DNA from: Candidatus Woesebacteria bacterium
GTDB lineage: Bacteria > Patescibacteriota > Microgenomatia > UBA8517
Length of the DNA stretch: 64,000 bases
Reading direction: 5' to 3'
Assembly (NCBI GenBank): GCA_013426185.1
Contig: CP058602.1
Location: 546,279-610,278, forward strand
The notes beneath the pieces are model-generated. The model was not told where the DNA came from. It was given only the letters and a program-made list of their open reading frames with translations, and made no database searches. Below are positions 10,181-62,163 of the stretch, piece after piece (within the stretch, counting starts at the first letter, position 1; each line of letters starts with the position of its first letter). The position numbers were made by a program, and so were the translations under genes.

Positions 10181-12406
10181 TTAGTATCTTTTCTTCTCAA
10201 AGTTATCAAGAAGACGACTTGTGGGGAAATGTGGACCAGAAGAGGACTTTTGCCTTCTAAAGTTCCTATTCTGCCTTCTATCACGACTGTGATTTTCTCT
10301 TGCCTGACTTTGTTGTTTCTCCTGAGTCTTATCCAAAATCATGGAAAGGTTAATCCTTCCCAAATCATCAATTCCCTTTACTCTCACTTCAACCTTATCA
10401 CCTAGTTTAAGAAGGTCATGAGGGTCGCGAACAAAATCGGTACTCATATCAGAGACATGAACCATACCTTCCTTACCAGGCAAAATCTCTATAAAGACAC
10501 CAAAAGGCTCTATCCTTTTGACCACTCCTTGATATATTTCATCTGCCTTAACCTCTTTGGTCAATTGTTCAATCCTACTAACTGCCAATAAGACCGATTC
10601 GTCGCTTGTTCCTGTTATATTAACTGTGCCATCATCCTCAACTTCAATTTGAGCTCCAGTCTCAGCAATTAAAGAACGAATCATTCTGCCTCCTGGACCT
10701 ATTAATTCACCAATCTTATCCTGAGGAATTTTAAGGCTTTTGATTCTTGGGGCGTAAACTGAAAGAGATTCCCTTGGTTTATCAATCACTTTTGTCATCG
10801 CCTCCATAATCTCAAGCCTTGCTTTCTTCGCCTGTTTCAAAGCTTCAGATAAAATGCTTGGTGTAAGCTTTGTTGTTTTAACATCAAGCTGAAGCGCAGT
10901 AACTCCTTCTTTTGTGCCAGCTACTTTAAAATCCATATCACCTGCTCCATCTTCAATTCCGGCAATATCGGTTAAAACAGCAAATTTCTTCTCGCTTTCA
11001 ACCACCAAACCCATAGCAATACCGGCAACAGGTGCTGTAATAGGAACTCCTGCATCCATCAAAGAAAGAGTTGAGCCACAAGTTGAAGCCATAGAAGTTG
11101 AACCGTTGGAAGATAGAACCTCAGAGACAACCCGGATGGTGTAAGGAAAGACATCTTCAGAAGGAATAACAGGCAAAAGCGCTCGTTCAGCAAGTGCACC
11201 GTGTCCGATTTCTCTTCTTGAAGGAAAACCAACTCTGCCTGTTTCGCCGCTTGAATAAGGAGGCATAGTGTAATGATGCATATAACGCTTGGTTTCCTCA
11301 CCCTCTGCAGTCTCAATCAACTGTTCAAGTGAAGGAGCACCTAAGGTTGTAATTGATAAAACTTGCGTTTCCCCACGCCTAAAGATAGCCGAACCGTGAG
11401 TGCGAGGCAAAACTCCTACTTCAACACCAAGTGGGCGAATTTCATCAGTCTTCCTTCCGTCTGGTCGCTTCCCCGAAAGAACCATTTTGCGGAATTTCGA
11501 CGATAAGAGTTCCTCAAAGATGAAGAACACTTCCTTTTTATCCTCGTCTGGGAGTTTCTCTGCAAGAGCATTTTTATATTCATCAACTTCAGCATACCCT
11601 ATTTCCTTTTTGGCCATCTGAATAAGTATTTTTTCAATCTCTTTTCCAAATTCCTTATCAATCTTTTCTTTGAAAGAAGTTTTATCTTTAGGTTTAAATT
11701 CAAAACCGACATTAGAACCGGCTTTCTTGGCAAATTCAGAAATAAAATCAATTAATTTCTGTCCCTCTTTTTGAGCAAACTCGATACCCTCAAGAATTTT
11801 TTCTTCAGGAACTTGCTTGGCTCCAGCTTCAATCATTATCACAGCGTCTTTTGTGGTTGAAACAACTAAATCAAGAGCCGATTTTTCTTGCTCACTAACA
11901 AGAGGATTAAGAACAAAATTATCTTCAATAAGACCAATTCGAGAAACAGCCACAGGACCTTTCCAAGGAATACCTGAAACAGACAAAGCTGCAGATGTGG
12001 CAATAGCAGCCACAATGTCTGGACTATTTTCGATATCAACTGATAAGACTGTTACTGTTACTTGGACTTCACTATCTTTATATTCCTTTGGAAAAAGAGG
12101 TCTGATACTTCTATCAATCAAGCGGCCTGTCAGAATTTCCTCATCAGAAGGTCTTCCTTCTCTTTTGACCCAGCGACTGCCTTTAATTTTTCCTCCTGCA
12201 TAAAGCCTTTCTTGATACTCAACTGAAAGAGGAAAATAACCAATGTCTTCTTTTAAAGGGGATGAAACCACAGCTGCCAAAACCACTGTCTCGCCATATT
12301 GGGCTAAAACAGCACCTGTGGCTTGAAAGGCTAAATTTCCGGAAGTAAGGATTAATTTCTTACCACCAAAATCAATTTCACTTTGAGTCTTTTGATTTTT
12401 TTTCAT
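10181..12406 (-). CDS. pnp: Polynucleotide phosphorylase (PNPase).
   Basis: Two RNase PH domains, a KH domain and an S1 domain ([15 protein letters not shown]) are present. The 741 aa length is typical. Classic rpsO-pnp gene order. Confidence 0.9.
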
Positions 12407-54406: not shown

Positions 54407-55218
54407 TTACCTTCAATCTTTTTAGTATATTGGCTTGGTATCCAACCTAAACTTACATCTTCTTTGCCAATTCTATACCACTCTTTATTTTCAGTTTCTT
54501 CAAGAACACTGTATTCCTCATCCTCCTTAACTTGGCCCACTTCGCTTGAAGATAAATCAGGCTTTTCCCTAACATTAAGCCCATCTTTTCCAACCTTTAC
54601 TATCTGGACCTTAAAATTAAGACTCTTTTGTACTGTTTGCTCCTGAGGTGGCACTGGAGCCAGTTTAAAAAAGGCTGTCAATTTGTATCCGGGGTAAGTC
54701 CTGATATTTACCTCTTTAGTCATAAAATCAAAAAGAGAAAGAGAAAGTTTATGCTCTCCCGAGTCAATAGAGCCAAGCTCCAAGGGGGTAAAGCCGCGCA
54801 CTTGATCATCTAGCTTAACTTGAGCTTTATCAGGATCAGATATTACCGAAATTACAGGATTTTTACCAACCACCTTCTCAAAAGAGACTAAAATTCCACT
54901 AGATTTCTCATCGCTTTCTGCAAGGTCCCTTTGCAAAACCGTCTTTACTTTCGCTACAAGCCTTACTCTTGTCTCATAAGAAGTAAGACGTGGGTCAAGA
55001 GGAGCTATCTTAATCAAGACTTCTTTTGGCTTTAAAGCAGCATCATAAGGAGTTTCGCCAACTTTAACGCCGTCTATAAAAACATCTGCCTTGGGATTTG
55101 AAACAACCAAAAGCCCGGCCTTGGGAGGAAAAAAATAGCCAATTAAGAAAAAGACAATAATAATTGTCAAAAAAACTGAAATTAAAATTGTAAAAATTAA
55201 TTTTATTTTTTTAATCAT
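54403..55218 (-). CDS. Membrane-anchored protein with PEGA-like and C-terminal SH3b domains.
   Basis: An N-terminal TM helix is present. The PEGA-like motif is LLVVSNPKADVFIDGVKVGETPYDAALKPKEVLIKIA. The SH3b-like C-terminus is LNVREKPDLSSSEVGQVKEDEEYSVLEETENKEWYRIG. Confidence 0.45.
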   Translation of the reverse strand: MIKKIKLIFTILISVFLTIIIVFFLIGYFFPPKAGLLVVSNPKADVFIDGVKVGETPYDAALKPKEVLIKIAPLDPRLTSYETRVRLVAKVKTVLQRDLAESDEKSSGILVSFEKVVGKNPVISVISDPDKAQVKLDDQVRGFTPLELGSIDSGEHKLSLSLFDFMTKEVNIRTYPGYKLTAFFKLAPVPPQEQTVQKSLNFKVQIVKVGKDGLNVREKPDLSSSEVGQVKEDEEYSVLEETENKEWYRIGKEDVSLGWIPSQYTKKIEGN

Positions 55219-55271
55219 TTTTTATTTTTAACACCCAAACTAGTTTAGCAGTTTAACAACTAAAGATCCTC

Positions 55272-55299
55272 TTGACAACACACTTCCCTATTTTATATT
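55272..55299 (+). promoter_or_regulatory. Sigma-70-type promoter of hsp20 (TTGACA-N16-TATATT).
   Basis: The plus strand reads cTTGACAacacacttccctatttTATATTatc. Confidence 0.6.
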
Positions 55300-55305
55300 A
55301 TCTTA

Positions 55306-55332
55306 TTAGCACTCAATAGTCTTGAGTGCTAG
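55306..55332 (+). promoter_or_regulatory. CIRCE operator upstream of hsp20.
   Basis: The plus strand reads TTAGCACTC-aatagtctt-GAGTGCTAg, with 1 mismatch to the consensus. It lies between the promoter and the RBS. Confidence 0.85.
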
Positions 55333-55350
55333 AGAAAGGGGGTGAGAAAG

Positions 55351-55752
55351 ATGGTAAACTTACTCGTCCGCGATCCTTTCCGAAATCTCTTTACTCTTCC
55401 CTCTTGGGACGAAGAGTGGGAAGAATTTCAGCCTCAAAGAGGTTTGAAGATTTATGCCACTGACAAAGATATCATCGCTGAGGCGGTGGTGGCAGGTGTT
55501 CCAGCCGAAAATATTGAAATCGAAATAGAAAATGGAGTTTTAACCATCAAGGCTGAAACCAAGGAAGAAAAGAAAACTAAAGGAGAATATCATGCTTCAA
55601 GCTTCAAATACTACTACACCACTGCCCTTTCAGGCGGTGACTGGCACAAAGCTAAGGCTGAAGTTAAAAACGGCATTGTAACAGTCACTATTCCCAAGAC
55701 TGAAGCGGCAAGGCCAAAGAAAATCACTGTCAAAGCAAAAGAAAGCAAATGA
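55351..55752 (+). CDS. Small heat-shock protein (Hsp20/alpha-crystallin family). The ATG at 55351 is preferred over the ORF-track GTG at 55342.
   Basis: The alpha-crystallin domain reads AVVAGVPAENIEIEIENGVLTIKAE...KNGIVTVTIPK. The RBS aaagggggtgag lies 4 nt upstream of the ATG. Confidence 0.85.
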   Translation: MVNLLVRDPFRNLFTLPSWDEEWEEFQPQRGLKIYATDKDIIAEAVVAGVPAENIEIEIENGVLTIKAETKEEKKTKGEYHASSFKYYYTTALSGGDWHKAKAEVKNGIVTVTIPKTEAARPKKITVKAKESK

Positions 55753-55758
55753 TTAAAA

Positions 55759-55788
55759 AAGCCGCCTTCAAAGGGCGGCTTTTTTTTG
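55759..55788 (+). terminator. Rho-independent terminator of hsp20.
   Basis: The plus strand reads aagccgcc-ttcaaag-ggcggctt followed by ttttttt. Confidence 0.75.
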
Positions 55789-55817
55789 TTAAGAAAAAAA
55801 GGTAAAATAACAAAGTC

Positions 55818-55889
55818 GGCACGATGGTGAAGTGGAAACACGGCTGTCTGCAAAACAGCTATGCGGGGGTTCGATTCCCCCTCGTGCCT
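55818..55889 (+). tRNA. tRNA-Cys (anticodon GCA).
   Basis: The acceptor stem GGCACGA/TCGTGCC has 7 bp. The anticodon stem gctgt/acagc flanks the loop cTGCAaa. The T-arm is ggggg-TTCGATT-ccccc. The discriminator is U and no CCA is encoded. Confidence 0.75.
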
Positions 55890-56043
55890 CAAATAAATAC
55901 TCTTTTTGACCCTTTACTTTTTCAACCATCTCCATGTAATTAACTTCGGGTAAAAAATGAATCACATTCCAAAAGCCGCATTATCGCGGATTTTATAAAA
56001 AGATCCTAAGGGGCTCTTTTTTTAAAGAAAGGGGGTGAGAAAA

Positions 56044-56199
56044 ATGAAAGAAAAAGCACCTCAAGTTAGAACCGGAAAGATCCTAACCCCTGATAAAAAA
56101 AGAGAATTTACTATTGTAGATAATGGTGAGAAATTTGAAAACAAAGGATCAATCCCCAATCACGACAAAGTAGAAATTATTTATCAAAAACAAAATTAA
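56044..56199 (+). CDS. Possible small protein (51 aa) with a 5' region duplicated from hsp20.
   Basis: The 17 nt gaaagggggtgagaaa, including the RBS, are identical to the hsp20 leader, and aaagatcct lies further upstream in both. The ATG at 56044 opens a 51-codon ORF, MKEKAPQVRTGKILTPDKKREF..., which is below the track cutoff. Confidence 0.3.
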   Translation: MKEKAPQVRTGKILTPDKKREFTIVDNGEKFENKGSIPNHDKVEIIYQKQN

Positions 56200-56284
56200 A
56201 AAAAATCAAACCGGCAAGATTTATCTTGTAACAAGTGGTCTTATTTTTTTCAAAAAAGACAAACTCCAAATTAATTCATCAATC

Positions 56285-56358
56285 CTATTATTTTATTACG
56301 AGTTAATTATTTCAACTCGTCAACTCGCCAATAAACAATAAATTAATAGATATTAACT
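56285..56358 (+). repeat. Intergenic repeat element, copy A (CGAGTT/AACTCG palindromic units plus an AATAAATTAATAGAT...TTAACT tail).
   Basis: Copy A reads ttattttattacgagttaattatttcaactcgtcaactcgccaataaacaataaattaatagatattaact. It is near-identical to copy C. A TTCACA-N17-TATAAT promoter for the next gene follows. Confidence 0.7.
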
Positions 56359-56458
56359 ATCCAACTTGCTAATAAATAATAACGAACTTGCCAATGACTA
56401 ATAATTAATAAAAAAATACTCTTCACATTCTTGCAATTATAGGGTATAATATATTTAT

Positions 56459-56674
56459 ATGAGTGCGGAAAGACCAAAAGGAGAAACAACAATTCCTTTA
56501 ACACCAGAACAAACTAAAGGAGTAGTCGAAAAAATCCTTGAAAAATGGGGTGGAGAAAATGGAATATGTCTTACTGAAAAAAGCTTGAAAGAGCTAATGG
56601 ATCAGCTTGGACCCAATACAACCGTACAGGAGGCGATTAAAATCTTAAAAGGAAAGGAAAAAACTTCGGATTAA
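56459..56674 (+). CDS. Hypothetical small protein, 71 aa.
   Basis: The ORF follows repeat copy A and its promoter. No domain was recognised. Confidence 0.4.
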   Translation: MSAERPKGETTIPLTPEQTKGVVEKILEKWGGENGICLTEKSLKELMDQLGPNTTVQEAIKILKGKEKTSD

Positions 56675-56684
56675 AAGCACCACC

Positions 56685-56797
56685 CTATTTTATTGCGAGT
56701 TAGTTTATTACGAGTTCATTATTACGAGTTATTTATTAAGAGTTATTTATTCCAACTCGCTACCTCGAAAATAAATAATAAATTAATAATCTTAACT
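56685..56797 (+). repeat. Intergenic repeat element, copy B (expanded: about 4 tandem TTATT(A/G)CGAGTT units).
   Basis: Copy B reads ttattgcgagttagt / ttattacgagttcatt / attacgagttattt / attaagagttattt, then ccaactcgctacctcg aaaataaataataaattaataatcttaact. A TTGAGA-N17-TAAAAT promoter follows. Confidence 0.7.
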
Positions 56798-56871
56798 CTC
56801 AAAAATAATTAATGACAAATAAAGGAAAGGTCTAAGTTGAGAAAATTAATCAATTGTTTTAAAATTCAGTT

Positions 56872-57675
56872 ATGACTATAATAGAAAAAGGCCTGAATAT
56901 AGCCCAAACTGTCGCTCACGGCGCCTCAAGAGACTACCCCTACAATCACTTAATCCGCCAGCGGCCAGAAAGTTATCGTATTTCAAATCCTGCTCCAGAA
57001 AATACATTAGACGACCTTCTCAGTGTTATAAATAAAGATGGCGCATCTCTTAAACCATTTAAATCTCAACTAGGGATCGATAAAACAGAAATTTTAAAGT
57101 TCTATGTCGCTTTCGCCGACCAACACCGTCTCCCATTTTCAGAAAATTTGACCCAGATTCTCAAACAAGCAGAAGAATTGGTAGGGACAATCGAACATAA
57201 ATTCAGAGAAAAAGGCCGCCCAATAACAATAACCGAACAATTAAATATTGCTCTTGAATTATTCAAAGGCGATCTTTCAAAAGCTTTAATTAACCTGGCT
57301 GTTGCAACAAGAGCTGTAGCGCGAGGATGCGATACTCGTCTTGTTCCTCAAATTCCAACACCACCATCAAGAATTCTCAACTGGCAAAAAGTGGCAGCTC
57401 CTTTCGGATTTAGCCCCCATGATGAGGACCCTGCTGGAGATACCTATCATTTCTGGGAGGCAATGGTTCTAGCAATTTCAGCTTGCGAAAGAGACGGATT
57501 ATATAACCGCTTTACAGGCACTATTGCTGAATTTATGGGGCGAATAACTCCTGAGGCAACAGAAATTTTACGCCATAAAATTTGTAGAAAAGAAGGAAAA
57601 ACACATCCTGAAGCAGACATTTTAGGATTCGAGATTGGTAAAGCTTTGGCTCTCATCCTCCCAACTTCACAATAA
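56872..57675 (+). CDS. Hypothetical protein, 267 aa, with noticeably GC-richer codon usage than its neighbours.
   Basis: The ORF has coding periodicity and is flanked by repeat copies B and C. No motif was recognised. Confidence 0.5.
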   Translation: MTIIEKGLNIAQTVAHGASRDYPYNHLIRQRPESYRISNPAPENTLDDLLSVINKDGASLKPFKSQLGIDKTEILKFYVAFADQHRLPFSENLTQILKQAEELVGTIEHKFREKGRPITITEQLNIALELFKGDLSKALINLAVATRAVARGCDTRLVPQIPTPPSRILNWQKVAAPFGFSPHDEDPAGDTYHFWEAMVLAISACERDGLYNRFTGTIAEFMGRITPEATEILRHKICRKEGKTHPEADILGFEIGKALALILPTSQ

Positions 57676-57698
57676 TTTTCTATAAAAGAAAATATTAC

Positions 57699-57794
57699 TT
57701 ATTATTTTATTTCGAGTTAAATTATTACGAGTTAATTATTACTACTCGTCAACTCGTCAATAATTAATAAACAATAAATTAATAGATGTTAACT
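57699..57794 (+). repeat. Intergenic repeat element, copy C.
   Basis: Copy C reads ttattattttatttcgagttaaattattacgagttaattattactactcgtcaactcgtcaataattaataaacaataaattaatagatgttaact. Confidence 0.7.
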
Positions 57795-57801
57795 CGCTAA
57801 C

Positions 57802-58437
57802 TTGTTAATAAAAAGAGAGTCAATAAATGATGAAAAAATACGAAAGATATTGTACAATCAACATATTATGACAGAGGGTCAAAGTGAAAACCCCATAGAA
57901 GAAAAACTTAGAAACTTGTCAATTACTGAGTTGTCGCAAGCAACAAATAATTTCTTGTCCCTTCTTAAAAATCATGACCATAGATATATACCTCAGGTTG
58001 CTAACAAGGAGGGATTGGTCCTAATAGCAAGACGCTATTTAGAAGAATATAGTCCGCTATTAAGAGAATGGGAAAGAAGACAAAACGAAAGAGAATACAG
58101 GCCAGATCTACACCAAAAGCTACAAGGACAAATCCCCGATGAAATACTAAACGAACTACGGGAATTAGAGAAAAGACAAGCAACTAGCCTTGACTGGAAA
58201 CCCCAAGAAGAGGGAAAACGTTTAATATTACTGCAAAAAATCAGAAGATCATATAATAACGGTATCCTAAAGATCCCTTATCCATGGCTTGATTTTTGTC
58301 TAGAAAACAAGGAACAAATAAAACAAATTGTAAGAGGATTAGAAAGAAAGCAATCAGGAGAAGGACTTACGGGAGAAGAAACTCTGATTCTAAATTTCCT
58401 TGAAAGAAGTGGGGTTGGAGAAATTCTAAAAGACTAA
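57802..58437 (+). CDS. Hypothetical protein. The track start is the TTG at 57802; the in-frame ATG at 57860 (MTEGQSENP...) may be the real start.
   Basis: The ORF immediately follows repeat copy C. The protein is charged and helical (RRYLEEYSPLLREWERRQNEREYRPDLHQKLQ). No domain was recognised. Confidence 0.45.
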   Translation: MLIKRESINDEKIRKILYNQHIMTEGQSENPIEEKLRNLSITELSQATNNFLSLLKNHDHRYIPQVANKEGLVLIARRYLEEYSPLLREWERRQNEREYRPDLHQKLQGQIPDEILNELRELEKRQATSLDWKPQEEGKRLILLQKIRRSYNNGILKIPYPWLDFCLENKEQIKQIVRGLERKQSGEGLTGEETLILNFLERSGVGEILKD

Positions 58438-58492
58438 AAAACAAGACTCTTAGACTTATAATACTTCTTTAACACGCCTTCCTAAAAGAACA

Positions 58493-59212
58493 TCAATCAT
58501 CCAACTCCTCAATCAACCTGCGACATCGGCAAAACTCGCAATTATCCCCTGCTTCAGGAATTATGTCTGAATCAAGACATTCCTTCATAGCAAAAATTGC
58601 TGGCTCAACCCAAGAAGTGTCGCCTTTATGAGAAATAATCTCAAGTTCAAACTCAAGTCTTCCATCAAACTTAGGCCTGTTTTTCCCAGCATTGGCATAG
58701 ACAAAATAAGCAATAGGCGAAACTGAAAAACCGCTTTTTAGGAAAATCCACTGATAAACTTCAACTTGCTTCTTAAACATCTGTTTATATTCATCTTCCA
58801 AAGATATTTCGTTTTCAGTTGATGTTGACTTATAGTCAACAATATGAAGCTCGCCCTTTTTGTTTATCCAAATATCATCCACTGCCCCAAAAATTAAAAA
58901 ATTAGTTTCTTTGTGATAAAACTCCTTGCCTTTGAAATTATTTCTCCAAATATCAAGCTCTTTATGCTTAAAAGGAACAGCCTCAATTTTATACTTTTTC
59001 ATCAATTCGTGCGGCTGTCCGCTTTCCCTAAGCAGATCAAATTCTTTCTTCAGAAGAGCGTCAACCGCTGAATTTAAAGAAAAAGCAGGCATTCCCGGAC
59101 GGCTAATTCCCTTTTTTCTGTCAAGCCAAAAGCCCAGCGGACACTCCAAAAACAAATCAATCTTGATTCGTGAGATTCTAAAAGGAAGATCCCCGTTCTT
59201 GTCGTAAATCAT
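58493..59212 (-). CDS. Cas4-like PD-(D/E)xK nuclease with a 4-Cys cluster (RecB/Cas4/DUF83 family), stand-alone.
   Basis: The N-terminal Cys is in IKIDLFLECPLGFWL. The nuclease core is GAVDDIWINKKGELHIVDYKST (D...E.K). The QhxxY motif is QVEVYQW. The C-terminal cysteines are CEFCRCRR. Confidence 0.7.
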   Translation of the reverse strand: MIYDKNGDLPFRISRIKIDLFLECPLGFWLDRKKGISRPGMPAFSLNSAVDALLKKEFDLLRESGQPHELMKKYKIEAVPFKHKELDIWRNNFKGKEFYHKETNFLIFGAVDDIWINKKGELHIVDYKSTSTENEISLEDEYKQMFKKQVEVYQWIFLKSGFSVSPIAYFVYANAGKNRPKFDGRLEFELEIISHKGDTSWVEPAIFAMKECLDSDIIPEAGDNCEFCRCRRLIEELDD

Positions 59213-59303
59213 ATTGCTTAATTATACTCTAAAGACATTTCTAACAGAAAATTTTTTGACTAATTCTCAACGCCACCAAATCAATAACTTGATAACTAAT
59301 AAT

Positions 59304-59337
59304 CAACTCGTCATAAATAATAAATCAATAAAAAAAT
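59304..59337 (+). repeat. Partial copy D of the intergenic repeat.
   Basis: The fragment caactcgtcataaataataaatcaataaaaaaat matches the AACTCG plus AATAAAT tail of copies A and C. Confidence 0.45.
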
Positions 59338-59571
59338 CTGATAGGTGATATCTTTAAGGGAATCCATATCTATCAAAACCGCCATCTGGCAATTCTATCT
59401 GTTTTTTAACCTAGGTGAATCTCAGGCTGTAATTATTCCACCACATTTTATTCCATTCCACCCCCAATTACTGTTTGTTTAAAAAATATTATAACCGTTC
59501 TTTTCGTCATACTCTTATTTTTACCTCTCACCACAAAGTGGCCGCAGAAGACTCCTTAATTCTGACTCTAT

Positions 59572-59820
59572 CTACAATCTTAGTTGAGAATTAGGCACTT
59601 CCAAGAAGGCCAACCAGATTTGCAATCCATTCGCATATTTATACCATTCCTGCTTTCTTTCATGATTAGACATTCTAGAGCCCAACTTGTCAGTTTCACC
59701 TACATCTAACCAATTTTTGGTAGTGTAAATTACATAAACACCAGGTACTTCATTAAATGAGGATTCTAAACGGTATGACCCATCAAAATCATAGTTACCT
59801 ATCCTTACCATTTTTCTCAC
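59572..59820 (-). CDS. Minimal GIY-YIG nuclease-domain protein, 82 aa.
   Basis: PGVYVIYTTKNWLDVGETDKLGSRMSNHERKQEWYKYAN fits GIY...YIG..(x)R...H...E...N, in the same spacing as the UvrC N-domain. Its own TTGACA-N15/16-TATAAA promoter lies at about 59845-59875 on the minus strand. Confidence 0.5.
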   Translation of the reverse strand: MRKMVRIGNYDFDGSYRLESSFNEVPGVYVIYTTKNWLDVGETDKLGSRMSNHERKQEWYKYANGLQIWLAFLEVPNSQLRL

Positions 59821-59979
59821 CCCCTTTCGGGTTTATTTAGGCCAAATTTATAGCGAGTTCAGAAAGTTGTCAATATCAATAACAATATCAAAAGACACCA
59901 GTCTAGGCCAAACTGAGCGTGATATTTAAAAAACTACTGAAGCTAAATTGGCAATCAATGCCAAGATGCGGTAATTAAT

Positions 59980-62163
59980 CTAAAAAACTACATCCTCTTG
60001 GGTGTGGGGATAAAACCATCGCCCACGATAATTTCTTTGGTCGGTATTAGCAATTATTCCGCCAAAAAGTTTCTTACCTTTCTTATTTTGCTCATCAATA
60101 TATTTGTTCAACCCTTCAGACTTTGGACCGAAATCGCTCAACTGCGTTCCATGAGGATCAAATAAACCAAGCCTCCCATCTTTCAACTTCACGATAAAAT
60201 CAACATAAAACGGTTTTTGTTTTCCATTTTCATAAGGTACAGCAAAAAAGGTAGCATCTCTATCTCCATTTTTAAACCACCATTCAACATTCTCCGATTT
60301 TTCCAAAAAATCAATAAAGACCGCTTCCGATTTCCATTTCTCATCGCTGTAAAATGGCTTCATAATTGACTTTTTCGTTTCGATCTTTTTGTATTCGCTA
60401 CCAAAAGAAAGGGTTTCTGGTATATTCCAATTTGGCACATAAACCATCTCGCTTTCTCTTTTCTCAACTTCTTCTTTATATTTTTCTTTCGCTTTGTCTA
60501 AAACATTAACAAAATGTTGAGAATTTTCCTCACTTAAAACAATCTGGACTATATCCTCCCAAACATCTTCATACGGCATTTTTAGTTCCTGCTCAAAAAA
60601 TTTATAAATTGCTTCTTTTACTCTACCAACTGATCTATCCTCAGGATAGAAAGGCGTTAGATTATTTCTTACAAAAAAATCGAATAATTTTTGTAAATCA
60701 AAGCCACCAACTTTTATTGCCTTATCCCCAATAATTTTTGCGCCGGCCAATGCGTCAACATCTTCAGCCTTGTAGTCAGAGATAATTTTCAAATCAATTT
60801 TTCTTGCCTTTATATCAACATTCTTTTTCAAACCATATTCTTTGGCTTTTTCTAAAAATATCTCAATAAAAAGTGGCGATAATCTTGTCTTTTCTCGGTG
60901 TCTTTTGTGATAGCAAGAAAGCAATCTTAAATTAGGGTCAAAACTCCTCTTACTTGTATAAATAGTGATGTAATCTTTGGCAATGTCTTCTTTAATTTCT
61001 ATATCGCCTAAATTGGTATAAACATAGCCGTAATTTAAACTCTCATTTTTGTAATGACCTTTATCCGGTTCCGGCATACGCATAATTCTGCCGACAGTCT
61101 GGATTGAGAAAATTGGGCTGTGCCACTCTCTAAACAAAACTAAAATCTGCGCTCTTGGACAATCCCAGCCCAAAGCAATCGCTTGCTTGAAAAGCAAAAC
61201 TTCCACATAATTGTCTGGTTTTTCTACCTCTTCTTTATTGATATGCTCGCCCGAAAGCCAGATTGCTAATTTATTATTTTCTTTTTCTGTTGAGATTTTA
61301 TATTTATTTTTCAAAATACTTTCCACTCGTTCTCTTATTCTGTCTTCTAAACTTGTTTTTCTGTCGGGTAATTGAATTAAAACTAATGGATTAACATTAA
61401 CCCCTTCTTTTTTATATGCTTCTACTAATTCCTGTCTTTTCTTTATCGCAGCATCTATGACTAACTCTTCACTACCACCGCTTAATTTCTGCGTCTGGAT
61501 TTTCCCATGTTTGATAAAATTAACAAAATCATCATTCAATATAATTCCTTTCTTAATCATTCCTTCTTTTTTGACATCTTCAATAGCAACAGAAACCATA
61601 TCATCTGGATCTCTTAAAACGGGAGTAGCTGAAACCTCAATTGTTAATTTGGGACCAATCATTTGAATTAACCCCTGAGAGATTTTGCTGGTTGCGTGGT
61701 GGTGGGCTTCGTCAATAACTAAAATTATTTCTCGTCCTTCTTCCTTTGTTCTTTCTAATACCTTTGACAAGTTAAAATCCTGCTCATTATCGCGAATATA
61801 GATATTATCTGCCTTGTTGATACTTTCCCAATTAAAAAACAGAATTTCATTTTCACTTATTTTTCTATCGTCCAAATCCTCAAAATAAGAACATTCTAAC
61901 GCTCTGCTTGTTTCAAAATAATTTTCTAACTTTTCTCGGCTTTGAATATGTAGTTGTCTTGGAGCCGTCCAAATAAAACCAAGCGATTTTCTAACCTCTC
62001 TATCATTAACTAATTGCTTTAAAAATTCTGCCATCATTATTGTTTTCCCCGACCCCGTCGGTGCTTTGAAAACTAATTTTTTTCCGCCACCTAAACTCAA
62101 AAGTTTCTTAGCTTTTGTTAACAACTCATCTATTGCATTTTGTTGGTAAATTTTTAGTTGCAT
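59980..62163 (-). CDS. SF2 DEAH-box helicase (ResIII-like N-terminus) with a C-terminal Type III Res / HsdR-like endonuclease-type motif.
   Basis: The Walker A motif is FKAPTGSGKTIMMAEF. The DEAH box is VIDEAHH. Motif VI is QTVGRIMR. The C-terminus carries KPFYVDFIVKLKDGRLGLFDPHG, which resembles the PDFIV...DG...VvEtKG nuclease motif of Res/HsdR subunits but with D-P-H in place of E-x-K. Confidence 0.7.
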   Translation of the reverse strand: MQLKIYQQNAIDELLTKAKKLLSLGGGKKLVFKAPTGSGKTIMMAEFLKQLVNDREVRKSLGFIWTAPRQLHIQSREKLENYFETSRALECSYFEDLDDRKISENEILFFNWESINKADNIYIRDNEQDFNLSKVLERTKEEGREIILVIDEAHHHATSKISQGLIQMIGPKLTIEVSATPVLRDPDDMVSVAIEDVKKEGMIKKGIILNDDFVNFIKHGKIQTQKLSGGSEELVIDAAIKKRQELVEAYKKEGVNVNPLVLIQLPDRKTSLEDRIRERVESILKNKYKISTEKENNKLAIWLSGEHINKEEVEKPDNYVEVLLFKQAIALGWDCPRAQILVLFREWHSPIFSIQTVGRIMRMPEPDKGHYKNESLNYGYVYTNLGDIEIKEDIAKDYITIYTSKRSFDPNLRLLSCYHKRHREKTRLSPLFIEIFLEKAKEYGLKKNVDIKARKIDLKIISDYKAEDVDALAGAKIIGDKAIKVGGFDLQKLFDFFVRNNLTPFYPEDRSVGRVKEAIYKFFEQELKMPYEDVWEDIVQIVLSEENSQHFVNVLDKAKEKYKEEVEKRESEMVYVPNWNIPETLSFGSEYKKIETKKSIMKPFYSDEKWKSEAVFIDFLEKSENVEWWFKNGDRDATFFAVPYENGKQKPFYVDFIVKLKDGRLGLFDPHGTQLSDFGPKSEGLNKYIDEQNKKGKKLFGGIIANTDQRNYRGRWFYPHTQEDVVF

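Follow-up and report, generated by a model that had tools for sequence, protein, structure and literature searches.

Introduction

The repetitive extragenic palindromic (REP) sequences and bacterial interspersed mosaic elements (BIMEs) of enterobacteria are short, imperfect palindromes found between genes, often within operons, in either orientation and with variable tandem sub-units. They are also known as recombination hot spots, where deletions and duplications arise, and in E. coli operons REP hairpins protect mRNA from 3' exonucleases. Here we describe an element with similar features from bacteria of the candidate phyla radiation (CPR). In Ch104c, a Candidatus Woesebacteria bacterium, three full copies and a weak remnant lie downstream of a tRNA-Cys gene, within a 64,000-nt stretch of the genome that was analysed as a whole (the window). 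The copies, of which the full ones share one orientation, appear to form the junctions of a variable array of small genes. We lean towards the view that the element is a REP/BIME-like palindrome of CPR bacteria, whose same-orientation copies drive the turnover of gene cassettes via general recombination and slippage.

The CPR element is unrelated in sequence to REP and BIMEs, its arms being tandem units of 8 nt and 14 nt built about an invariant CGAGTT. The gene tables retrieved showed no RAYT-type (REP-associated tyrosine) transposase with the element and no Y1 transposase; the 5' GTAG/GGAG tetranucleotide is not in the consensus. BIMEs also alternate in orientation, whereas the Ch104c copies occupy a single 3-kb array in one orientation. 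The pneumococcal BOX element (boxA-boxB(n)-boxC) is another intergenic repeat of modular construction, with partly complementary terminal modules and an internal tandem module whose copy number differs from locus to locus and from strain to strain. As generally described, BOX resembles the CPR element in its modular build, variable internal tandem and intergenic placement, but there is no sequence relationship, the CPR units are much shorter, and BOX elements are, to our knowledge, not known to bound exchangeable gene cassettes.

Integron arrays, and clusters of attC sites lacking integron-integrases (CALINs), resemble the locus in that unrelated small genes are split by imperfect palindromes of one orientation, and in that strains vary by gain, loss and reordering. 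Arrays of the tandem interspaced guide RNA (TIGR) type, the partners of Tas proteins in phages and in parasitic/CPR bacteria, consist of two alternating repeats of 8–12 nt with 9-nt spacers, forming a 36-nt unit which is present 5–15 times beside a Nop-domain Tas gene (PMC12045711). They share with the present locus the occurrence of short, partly palindromic tandem repeats in CPR-type genomes. Here, however, the units are 14–15 nt long with 2–3 variable bases and occur in 1–5 copies, and there is no Tas gene; no Nop-domain (Tas) protein is found among the proteins of the window contig. A CRISPR or TIGR array was rejected on the basis of the period, the lack of spacers and the lack of Cas or Tas genes.

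The genomes of CPR bacteria are tiny, and very little is known of the non-coding DNA or gene exchange of these organisms. Ch104c itself has a closed genome of 0.83 Mb and originates, according to the passages of the genome paper that were searched, from a 2.8-km-deep aquifer in Western Siberia; these passages do not mention the repeat (PMC7509429). Several of the proteins that the window encodes are identical to Ch104c proteins (QLG69845–QLG69867), from a contig of 818,817 bp. Literature searches returned no description of a CPR repeat of this kind, and a search of Rfam with positions 55000–60500 (E up to 1) found no match but the tRNA, in agreement with an initial annotation of this DNA, which knew of no described repeat family that matches. 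A conserved CPR palindrome might be either a REP-like repeat specific to CPR or a cis-regulatory site, and the covariance model described below now allows it to be mapped. The locus provides a natural example of same-orientation elements bounding strain-variable orphan genes beside a hot spot for defence genes, and the array offers a concrete, integrase-free route for accessory-gene turnover in reduced genomes. If it is true that a dedicated factor recognises the element, this would be a new cassette system.

Copies of the element at the tRNA-Cys locus

The three full copies lie on the plus strand at 56282–56352, 56685–56797 and 57696–57812, and the remnant lies on the minus strand at 59282–59337. 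Each full copy begins with a run of TTATTNCGAGTT units with a period of 14–15 nt (the loose arm), followed by a hinge of 9–10 nt, a doublet of AACTCGYY with an 8-nt period (the tight arm) and the module AATAAAYAATAAATTAATA(GAT). The number of TTATTNCGAGTT units is one in copy 1, four in copy 2 and two in copy 3. With its 14-nt and 8-nt arms set between AT-rich flanks, the element would be able to pair as nested helices.

Copy 1, which extends to 56404 when its degenerate end is included (56282–56404), has its single loose-arm unit, TTATTACGAGTT, at 56293, the tight-arm doublet AACTCGTC/AACTCGCC at 56314–56329 and the AT module AATAAACAATAAATTAATAGAT at 56330–56351; degenerate AACTTG units then form a 22-nt tandem at 56363–56404. 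In copy 2, four loose-arm units (56690–56744) precede the doublet AACTCGCT ACCTCGAA (56754–56769) and the AT module (56770–56791), and Tandem Repeats Finder (TRF) reports a tandem of period 14 and 4.4 copies at 56690–56751. Copy 3 has two loose-arm units at 57707–57733 (TRF: 57707–57742, period 15, 2.5 copies), a doublet at 57743–57758, the AT module at 57766–57787 and another doublet at 57791–57806; a second doublet past the AT module is present in copy 1 also. The copies align to each other past the short palindromes, over 47 nt at 89% identity and over 74 nt at 73–78%.

A covariance model, R1, was trained on nine elements of the asymmetric type defined below, all from genomes other than that of the window. 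Against the 64-kb window it finds the three copies at 50–51 bits (E 3–6e-7), matching 56282–56352 in copy 1 (51.2 bits, E 3.4e-7), 56694–56785 in copy 2 (50.6 bits, E 4.4e-7) and 57696–57773 in copy 3 (49.8 bits, E 6.3e-7). The remnant, which lies upstream of a PD-(D/E)XK nuclease gene, scores weakly and on the minus strand only (59282–59327, 22.5 bits, E 0.1) and is absent in the sister strain L002; nothing else in the window is significant. The copies that had been seen by eye after the tRNA-Cys gene are confirmed as three full copies and a remnant; the supposed half copy at 59304–59337 is present, albeit only as this weak trace on the minus strand.

The 12-mer of the element (up to one mismatch) matches 12 times in the window against 1.6 expected, with nine matches within 56293–59859, and the 22-mer AT module matches three times against 0 expected, every time inside a repeat copy. 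More than half of the CGAGTT/AACTCG hexamers in the window (14 of 25) fall within 55.8–60 kb. Outside the array no similar element was found in the 64-kb window, which holds no other repeated palindrome family. Nor was the element seen beyond the array in the 16-kb flanks of two sister strains or, using the tandem-unit pattern, in sister contigs of 80 kb and 283 kb, and R1 matches in sister strains are confined to the array. A palindrome that had been reported in the promoter region of the GIY-YIG gene proved marginal, being a single unit with one mismatch where three comparable background matches occur in the other ~60 kb. The idea that the array is co-regulated with the neighbouring nuclease genes depended on this one marginal half-site and is not upheld.

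Neisseria uptake sequences are often inverted pairs in intergenic DNA. By analogy, the 12-mer might be the preferred uptake sequence of a CPR competence machinery, concentrated at this locus so that the cassettes are taken up preferentially. A short conserved motif, placed between genes as inverted pairs in several CPR lineages, would fit such DNA uptake sequences or uptake signal sequences (DUS/USS). However, uptake sequences are normally dense genome-wide, including inside genes, and the core sequence (60 kb) shows no excess of the motif, with 11 hexamers against about 24 expected by composition. We regard an uptake signal as highly improbable.

Strain variation at the array

The window was compared with contigs of the same or sister populations, 14 in all, which came from exact-protein look-ups and one metagenome pattern scan. 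Where the contigs reach that far, the left anchor (hsp20 and tRNA-Cys), the right anchor (the PD-(D/E)XK gene) or both are kept, while the content between them varies, with at least six gene arrangements. Given as the lengths of the encoded proteins in amino acids, the arrangement 51-71-267-189 is found in the window, L002, L003, L064 and L065. L026 carries 52-71-149 followed by a 124-aa gene on the minus strand, the product of which is a four-helix-bundle protein of the 23S_rRNA_IVP family (IVP), and L034 and L042 carry 50-267 followed by a minus-strand 67-aa gene. In L016 the first gene is lacking and the 267-aa gene comes before the 71-aa gene; L050 has 64-267, and L021 has the 267-aa gene followed by an allele of the 189-aa gene with 55% identity. 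L050, L034 and L042 lack the 71-aa cassette. A full or partial repeat is present at nearly every junction, the exception in the window being the convergent junction of the 189-aa and PD-(D/E)XK genes. The comparison confirms that the tRNA-Cys locus is a strain-variable cassette array with gain, loss and reordering, as the initial annotation had suspected.

Joints lie within the repeats. L050 corresponds to the window up to 56308 followed by the window from 56686, the 71-aa cassette being gone and the joint lying inside the 14-nt units. In L016 the element after the 267-aa gene is fused to the element before the 71-aa gene, within 90 nt that match one copy as well as the other. Strains differ in how many 14-nt units follow the first gene, with 1, 3, 4 or 5 at that junction. 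Other breakpoints are found at different positions: L016 is homologous to the 267-aa cassette from precisely the predicted -35 box (56837) onward, and in L026 and L042 breakpoints lie inside the 3' end of the PD-(D/E)XK gene.

Compared with L002, L064 and L065, the repeats of the window are 100% identical, and identity shifts sharply from about 100% to 62–80% in two blocks. The first (57155–57515) is inside the 267-aa gene and the second (58055–58535) runs from the C-terminus of the 189-aa protein into the 3' end of the PD-(D/E)XK gene. In the C-terminal two-thirds of the 189-aa protein, the alleles of different strains are highly divergent. The mosaic alleles of the two blocks suggest that recombination is frequent or that the orphan proteins are under diversifying selection.

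The uniform orientation of all copies within an array, with one element per cassette junction, invites an integron-like explanation. In such a model the nested palindromes would be attC-like sites, folded as single strands and read by a recombinase encoded elsewhere, and cassettes would be excised and captured as units. The gain, loss and reordering of cassettes would follow from this, the copies share the arm asymmetries of their imperfect palindromes, and there is a GTT/AAC core, with GTTAAAT in copy 3 fitting GTTRRRY. Nevertheless, the array has no IntI: none of the strain contigs has a tyrosine or serine recombinase within ~10 kb, and the gene tables of the window contig and of sister contigs (8–10 kb either side) list no integrase family. 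The order on the coding strand is GTT...AAC, the reverse of attC, and most 7-mers do not fit RYYYAAC/GTTRRRY; TTTCAAC and CGTCAAC, for example, misfit RYYYAAC. Every cassette has a promoter of its own. Breakpoints are unfixed, being scattered over the loose arm (L050), the promoter (L016), the inside of genes (L002, L064, L065) and the PD-(D/E)XK 3' end (L026, L042). In core-gene regions of other genomes, the element also stands singly between housekeeping genes, and at two such loci which were repeatedly recovered the gene content is identical in every metagenome contig. The lack of an integrase, the wrong core order, the individual promoters and the scattered breakpoints led us to reject attC identity; a dedicated integron-like mechanism is unlikely, and in the form set out above it seems very doubtful.

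Other vehicles of gene exchange were also considered. An integrase-type tRNA island was rejected, as there is no integrase beside the tRNA and no direct repeat of the tRNA 3' end; its 3' 18-mer (up to three mismatches) has no second copy in the window, L001, L002, L026 or L034. A blastn search of 55891–58500 against 50,697 phage and 72,556 plasmid records gave no match. The repeat pattern had no match in viral contigs, and the cassette proteins had no family in PHROGs.

A family of elements in CPR genomes

Seven loci came from a pattern scan covering one genome per species. Five are in metagenome-assembled genomes (MAGs) labelled as CPR, namely Roizmanbacteria (on three contigs), Gribaldobacteria and Patescibacteria, and two are in genomes labelled Gammaproteobacteria whose sequence is CPR-like. 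From labelled MAGs and unlabelled metagenome contigs together, 16 distinct elements were obtained. These are of two types: the symmetric type has three 8–9-nt units per arm, while the asymmetric type, to which the window copies belong, has unequal arms, with two 14-nt TTATTNCGAGTT units in one and three 8-nt AACTCGNN units in the other. The elements lie in intergenic gaps, mostly 1–45 nt from the flanking genes, at nusB/rnc, hrcA/grpE, efp/aminoacyl-tRNA synthetase, fpg/macB and MazG/UDG, and also beside alaS, ruvB and folD. Flanking gene pairs are co-directional, convergent (fpg/macB; L024) or divergent (L008), and the element is found in either orientation. All 16 elements, as well as all array copies, lie between open reading frames (ORFs) and are extragenic in the sense applied to REP. 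Five copies occur in 24 kb of Roizmanbacteria GW2011_GWC2_34_23, while the Ch104c copies are restricted to the array within 64 kb; element densities of this kind are biased upward, since the loci were fetched for containing the motif.

The elements apparently constitute an undescribed family of conserved CPR intergenic palindromes with an invariant CGAGTT core, which is common to Microgenomates (Roizmanbacteria, Woesebacteria) and Parcubacteria (Gribaldobacteria). The initial annotation had asked whether the element is confined to this island or spread in the manner of a REP element. In the neighbourhood examined in this genome (the 64-kb window and the sister flanks) it is confined; in several other CPR lineages, members of the family lie between housekeeping genes, so that a REP-like setting is seen in other genomes but not within the window. 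The notion of an island-specific regulatory/terminator module should be replaced by that of a local cluster of a REP-like element family present in several CPR lineages. One element lies between hrcA and grpE, and a likeness of TTAGCGAGTT...AACTCGCTAA to the CIRCE operator (controlling inverted repeat of chaperone expression) was considered and rejected: the half-site differs and most copies are away from heat-shock genes.

The nested helices of the family are 94.7% paired. Seven of the 13 helix pairs never vary and compensatory cells number 2; the palindrome is therefore kept by sequence conservation, without visible covariation. Folding of canonical copies into nested hairpins is strong on either strand (z -5.4 to -7.9, -24 to -27 kcal/mol), whereas folding of the window copies is weak (z -0.5 to -4.2), with z -0.5 for copy 2 and plus-strand values of -2.6 and -3.2 for copies 1 and 3.

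These hairpins might act at the level of RNA, the upstream cassette ending 3' in a nested stem-loop that stops or pauses transcription, or shields the mRNA from 3' exonucleases. The position of the copies, which start 10–40 nt past the stop codon of the gene upstream, is consistent with such a role, as is the strong folding of canonical elements (z below -5) between genes of apparent operons. In the window, however, the copies fold weakly, copy 2 not exceeding shuffled sequence; there is no T-run, and a terminator scan gave no match at the copies. The genome does use terminators with a GC stem and a T-run, for example after hsp20 at ~55750–55790. The elements lie in mixed orientation to transcription, their two strands fold equally well, and some are found between divergent genes (L008), where they would form no transcribed 3' end. 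On the whole an RNA hairpin is an unlikely function. A canonical intrinsic terminator was rejected, the stems being AT-rich and the downstream sequence A-rich in addition to the points above, and the terminator role suggested by the initial annotation is not supported.

Alternatively, the units could form an operator or iteron array bound by a conserved CPR protein, such as a nucleoid-associated protein or global regulator, which would insulate or silence the cassettes upstream of their promoters, their turnover being a side effect of regulatory DNA that is repeated. The CGAGTT hexamer is near-invariant across Roizmanbacteria and Gribaldobacteria while the spacers vary, helix covariation is minimal, and in several lineages the two arms have differing fixed periods (14 and 8 nt), which a simple hairpin would not need. 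The copies sit 60–110 nt upstream of promoter-like sites, and the loose arm is found ~20 nt upstream of the start of the IVP gene in two unrelated genomes. It would be unusual for an operator, on the other hand, that the number of units (1–5) and the distance from arm to arm vary freely at the same junction. Elements are also found between convergent genes and in either orientation to co-directional genes, the array encodes no candidate binding protein, and the cassette proteins match no DNA-binding family. An operator function is conceivable, though we would not expect it.

The element's own role could be that of a selfish or neutral repeat, a transcript-ending or insulating hairpin, or a protein-binding site. 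The mixed orientation and the near-invariant hexamers favour sequence recognition or recent spread over a strand-specific RNA structure. Among the other metagenome matches, L038 carries an array of 12 CGAGTT-containing units (603–824) with irregular spacing, commonly 14–15 nt, and at some loci (L033, L048, L044) TTATTNCGAGTT units directly abut a GC-rich structured repeat (…gggaaattcgggttcgcttcgctcacgaatttccc…).

Proposed turnover by recombination between copies

The reading we prefer, that of a REP/BIME-like repeat exploited by general recombination and slippage, draws on the family and on the array together. From the same-orientation repeats at the junctions, the joints within repeats, the polymorphism in unit number, a cassette that travels with its element into an unrelated locus and the lack of a local recombinase, we infer slippage and recombination as the source of the turnover. 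Directly repeated copies would lend themselves to replication slippage and to unequal or homologous recombination, by which the cassettes in between would be deleted, duplicated or reordered. The conservation of the element across lineages would amount to portable homology, by which an incoming element-flanked gene could recombine into the array.

Several points weigh against this reading. The description of the element as interspersed derives from samples of 8–16 kb that were fetched for containing it, and in Ch104c copies are seen only in the island, which is unusual for a REP-type family. The identical stretches between copies are short (12–47 nt) and marginal for RecA-dependent exchange. 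Some recombination boundaries lie inside genes, in the divergent blocks described above, while the repeats beside them are 100% identical; the repeats are therefore not the sole crossover sites. Finally, the near-invariance of CGAGTT across distant lineages hints at a conserved trans-acting factor, and general recombination names none. The strongest hint of such a factor is the combination of invariant hexamers with the fixed 14-nt and 8-nt periods of the arms. In a bolder proposal, the CGAGTT nested palindrome would be the site of a CPR-specific recombination or DNA-processing factor and the array a dedicated cassette-capture platform, an integron analogue without IntI, with element-flanked genes such as the IVP gene being exchanged among distant CPR. 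We judge this to be distinctly unlikely.

Cassette genes and their promoters

Each plus-strand cassette has its own sigma-70-like site, the -10 box of which ends 6–10 nt ahead of the start codon. The 71-aa cassette (56422–56674, plus strand) consists of the promoter-like site TTCACA-17-TATAAT (56422–56450; 11/12 matches) and an ORF (56459–56674) that starts 8 nt past the -10 box. The 267-aa cassette (56837–57675, plus strand) has TTGAGA-17-TAAAAT at 56837–56865 (10/12) followed by an ORF at 56872–57675, and the 189-aa cassette (57830–58437, plus strand) has ATGAAA-17-TACAAT at 57830–57858 (9/12) followed by an ORF from the ATG at 57868. A sigma-70-like promoter after each full copy, as had been noted at the outset, is thus present, but the promoter is not part of a shared module: each cassette brings its own, and the homology of L016 starts at the -35 box of the 267-aa cassette. 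Judged by these predicted sites, the cassettes appear to carry individual promoters, with none shared.

By eye, the same short spacing between -10 box and start is seen for the 149-aa and PD-(D/E)XK genes. The -10-like boxes close to starts are found at 56445–56461, 56860–56874, 57853–57870 and, on the minus strand, 59212–59235. The 71-, 267- and 189-aa genes and the PD-(D/E)XK gene lack a Shine-Dalgarno site, whereas hsp20, the first small gene and the GIY-YIG gene have strong ones. The position of the -10 boxes, 6–10 nt ahead of the start codons, suggests that the cassette transcripts are leaderless or have very short leaders, and that the locus mixes leaderless and leadered genes. The third gene had been read as 211 aa. 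Its true start is almost certainly the ATG at 57868, which gives 189 aa, because M-T-E is kept unchanged in every homologue and the 211-aa extension contains the predicted -10 box.

Apart from the IVP protein, the cassette proteins have no match in Pfam or PADLOC either. AlphaFold2 models of the 267-aa protein (mean pLDDT, the predicted local distance difference test, 87) and of the 189-aa protein (86) are both all-helical and have no significant fold match in the PDB. The 267-aa gene had been described as visibly GC-richer than its surroundings. Its GC content is 0.41, as against 0.37 for the window and 0.43 for hsp20, and its GC content at third codon positions (GC3) is 0.29; both values are ordinary for core genes, and a foreign composition was rejected. 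Homologues of the 267-aa protein with 50–55% identity adjoin ychF amid housekeeping genes, without repeats. Residues D83, H85, R147, R151, R156, G189-D190, Y192-H193-F194-W195, H245 and D249 are invariant in the family. The protein looks like an enzyme with an uncharacterised active site, possibly metal-dependent.

L026 and L037 are colinear over the IVP gene and the element upstream of it, with 75% nucleotide identity over 478 nt and 78.5% amino acid identity. In L037 (3296–3880) the gene comes directly after a type I hsdS gene, between two full CGAGTT elements; its stop codon falls within an AACTCG unit. Gene and upstream element together line up colinearly with the cassette that L026, L034 and L042 carry on the minus strand. 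In L062, a relative at greater distance, homologues of the 189-aa and 149-aa cassettes are adjacent to each other and lie beside the PD-(D/E)XK gene, with a different repeat at the junction, a tandem of the 8-nt unit TAATYCGT. TAATYCGT tandems are present in five intergenic regions of L062 (570–625, 1041–1096, 1840–1912, 3275–3431 and 3906–3971), in one orientation and with no inverted partner, and may be a sister form of the tight arm. The cassettes are self-contained and are drawn from a shared pool.

Anchors and flanking genes

The left anchor consists of hsp20 (55342–55752) and the downstream tRNA-Cys gene with anticodon GCA (55818–55890, plus strand; ARAGORN, and 65 bits with the Rfam tRNA model), and is kept in L016, L026, L034, L064 and L065. 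The first small gene (56044–56199, plus strand) encodes 51 aa from an ATG or 54 aa from a GTG and has a Shine-Dalgarno site. Most strains have it, L016 being without it, and its product has no family in Pfam, PADLOC or PHROGs.

The right anchor (58493–59212, minus strand) encodes a Cas4-like PD-(D/E)XK nuclease with a C-terminal cysteine cluster, which matches Pfam PF12705 (3.6e-10) and the Cas4 models of PADLOC. It has 7896 homologues; the best of those listed are ~60–82% identical, and the named ones are from CPR MAGs. Homologues with 80–82% identity sit amid housekeeping genes without an array or repeats beside them, and the gene is therefore a widely conserved CPR gene that anchors the array and is no partner of the cassettes. 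A functional link between the nuclease and the array was rejected as unsupported, the gene being ubiquitous among the CPR matches. To the right of the array, the PD-(D/E)XK gene is followed by the GIY-YIG gene, a type III restriction helicase and a Schlafen/AlbA_2 gene, and past the end of the window by an N6/N4 methyltransferase, ParE/Phd and RadC.

A perfect 20-nt inverted repeat, GAAAGGGGGTGAGAAAAATG, occurs at 56027–56046 and at 59809–59828 and brackets the whole array. The two occurrences lie over the starts of the first small gene and the GIY-YIG gene, each taking in the ribosome-binding site as well as the start codon. The start context of hsp20 (55341–55353) is almost the same, and the 13-mer is found four times against 0.2 expected.

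Sister strains carry a second, truncated 5' end of the PD-(D/E)XK gene with its upstream region, located beyond an inserted NYN-domain gene (L002, 4254–4374; L026, ~11708–11791; window counterpart, 59127–59245). The right flank of the nuclease gene is therefore a second hypervariable site. The defence genes found there differ by strain and comprise GIY-YIG with type III restriction-modification, NYN with Tsp45I, NYN with HNH and an Eco57I/MmeI-type enzyme, or DUF4268.

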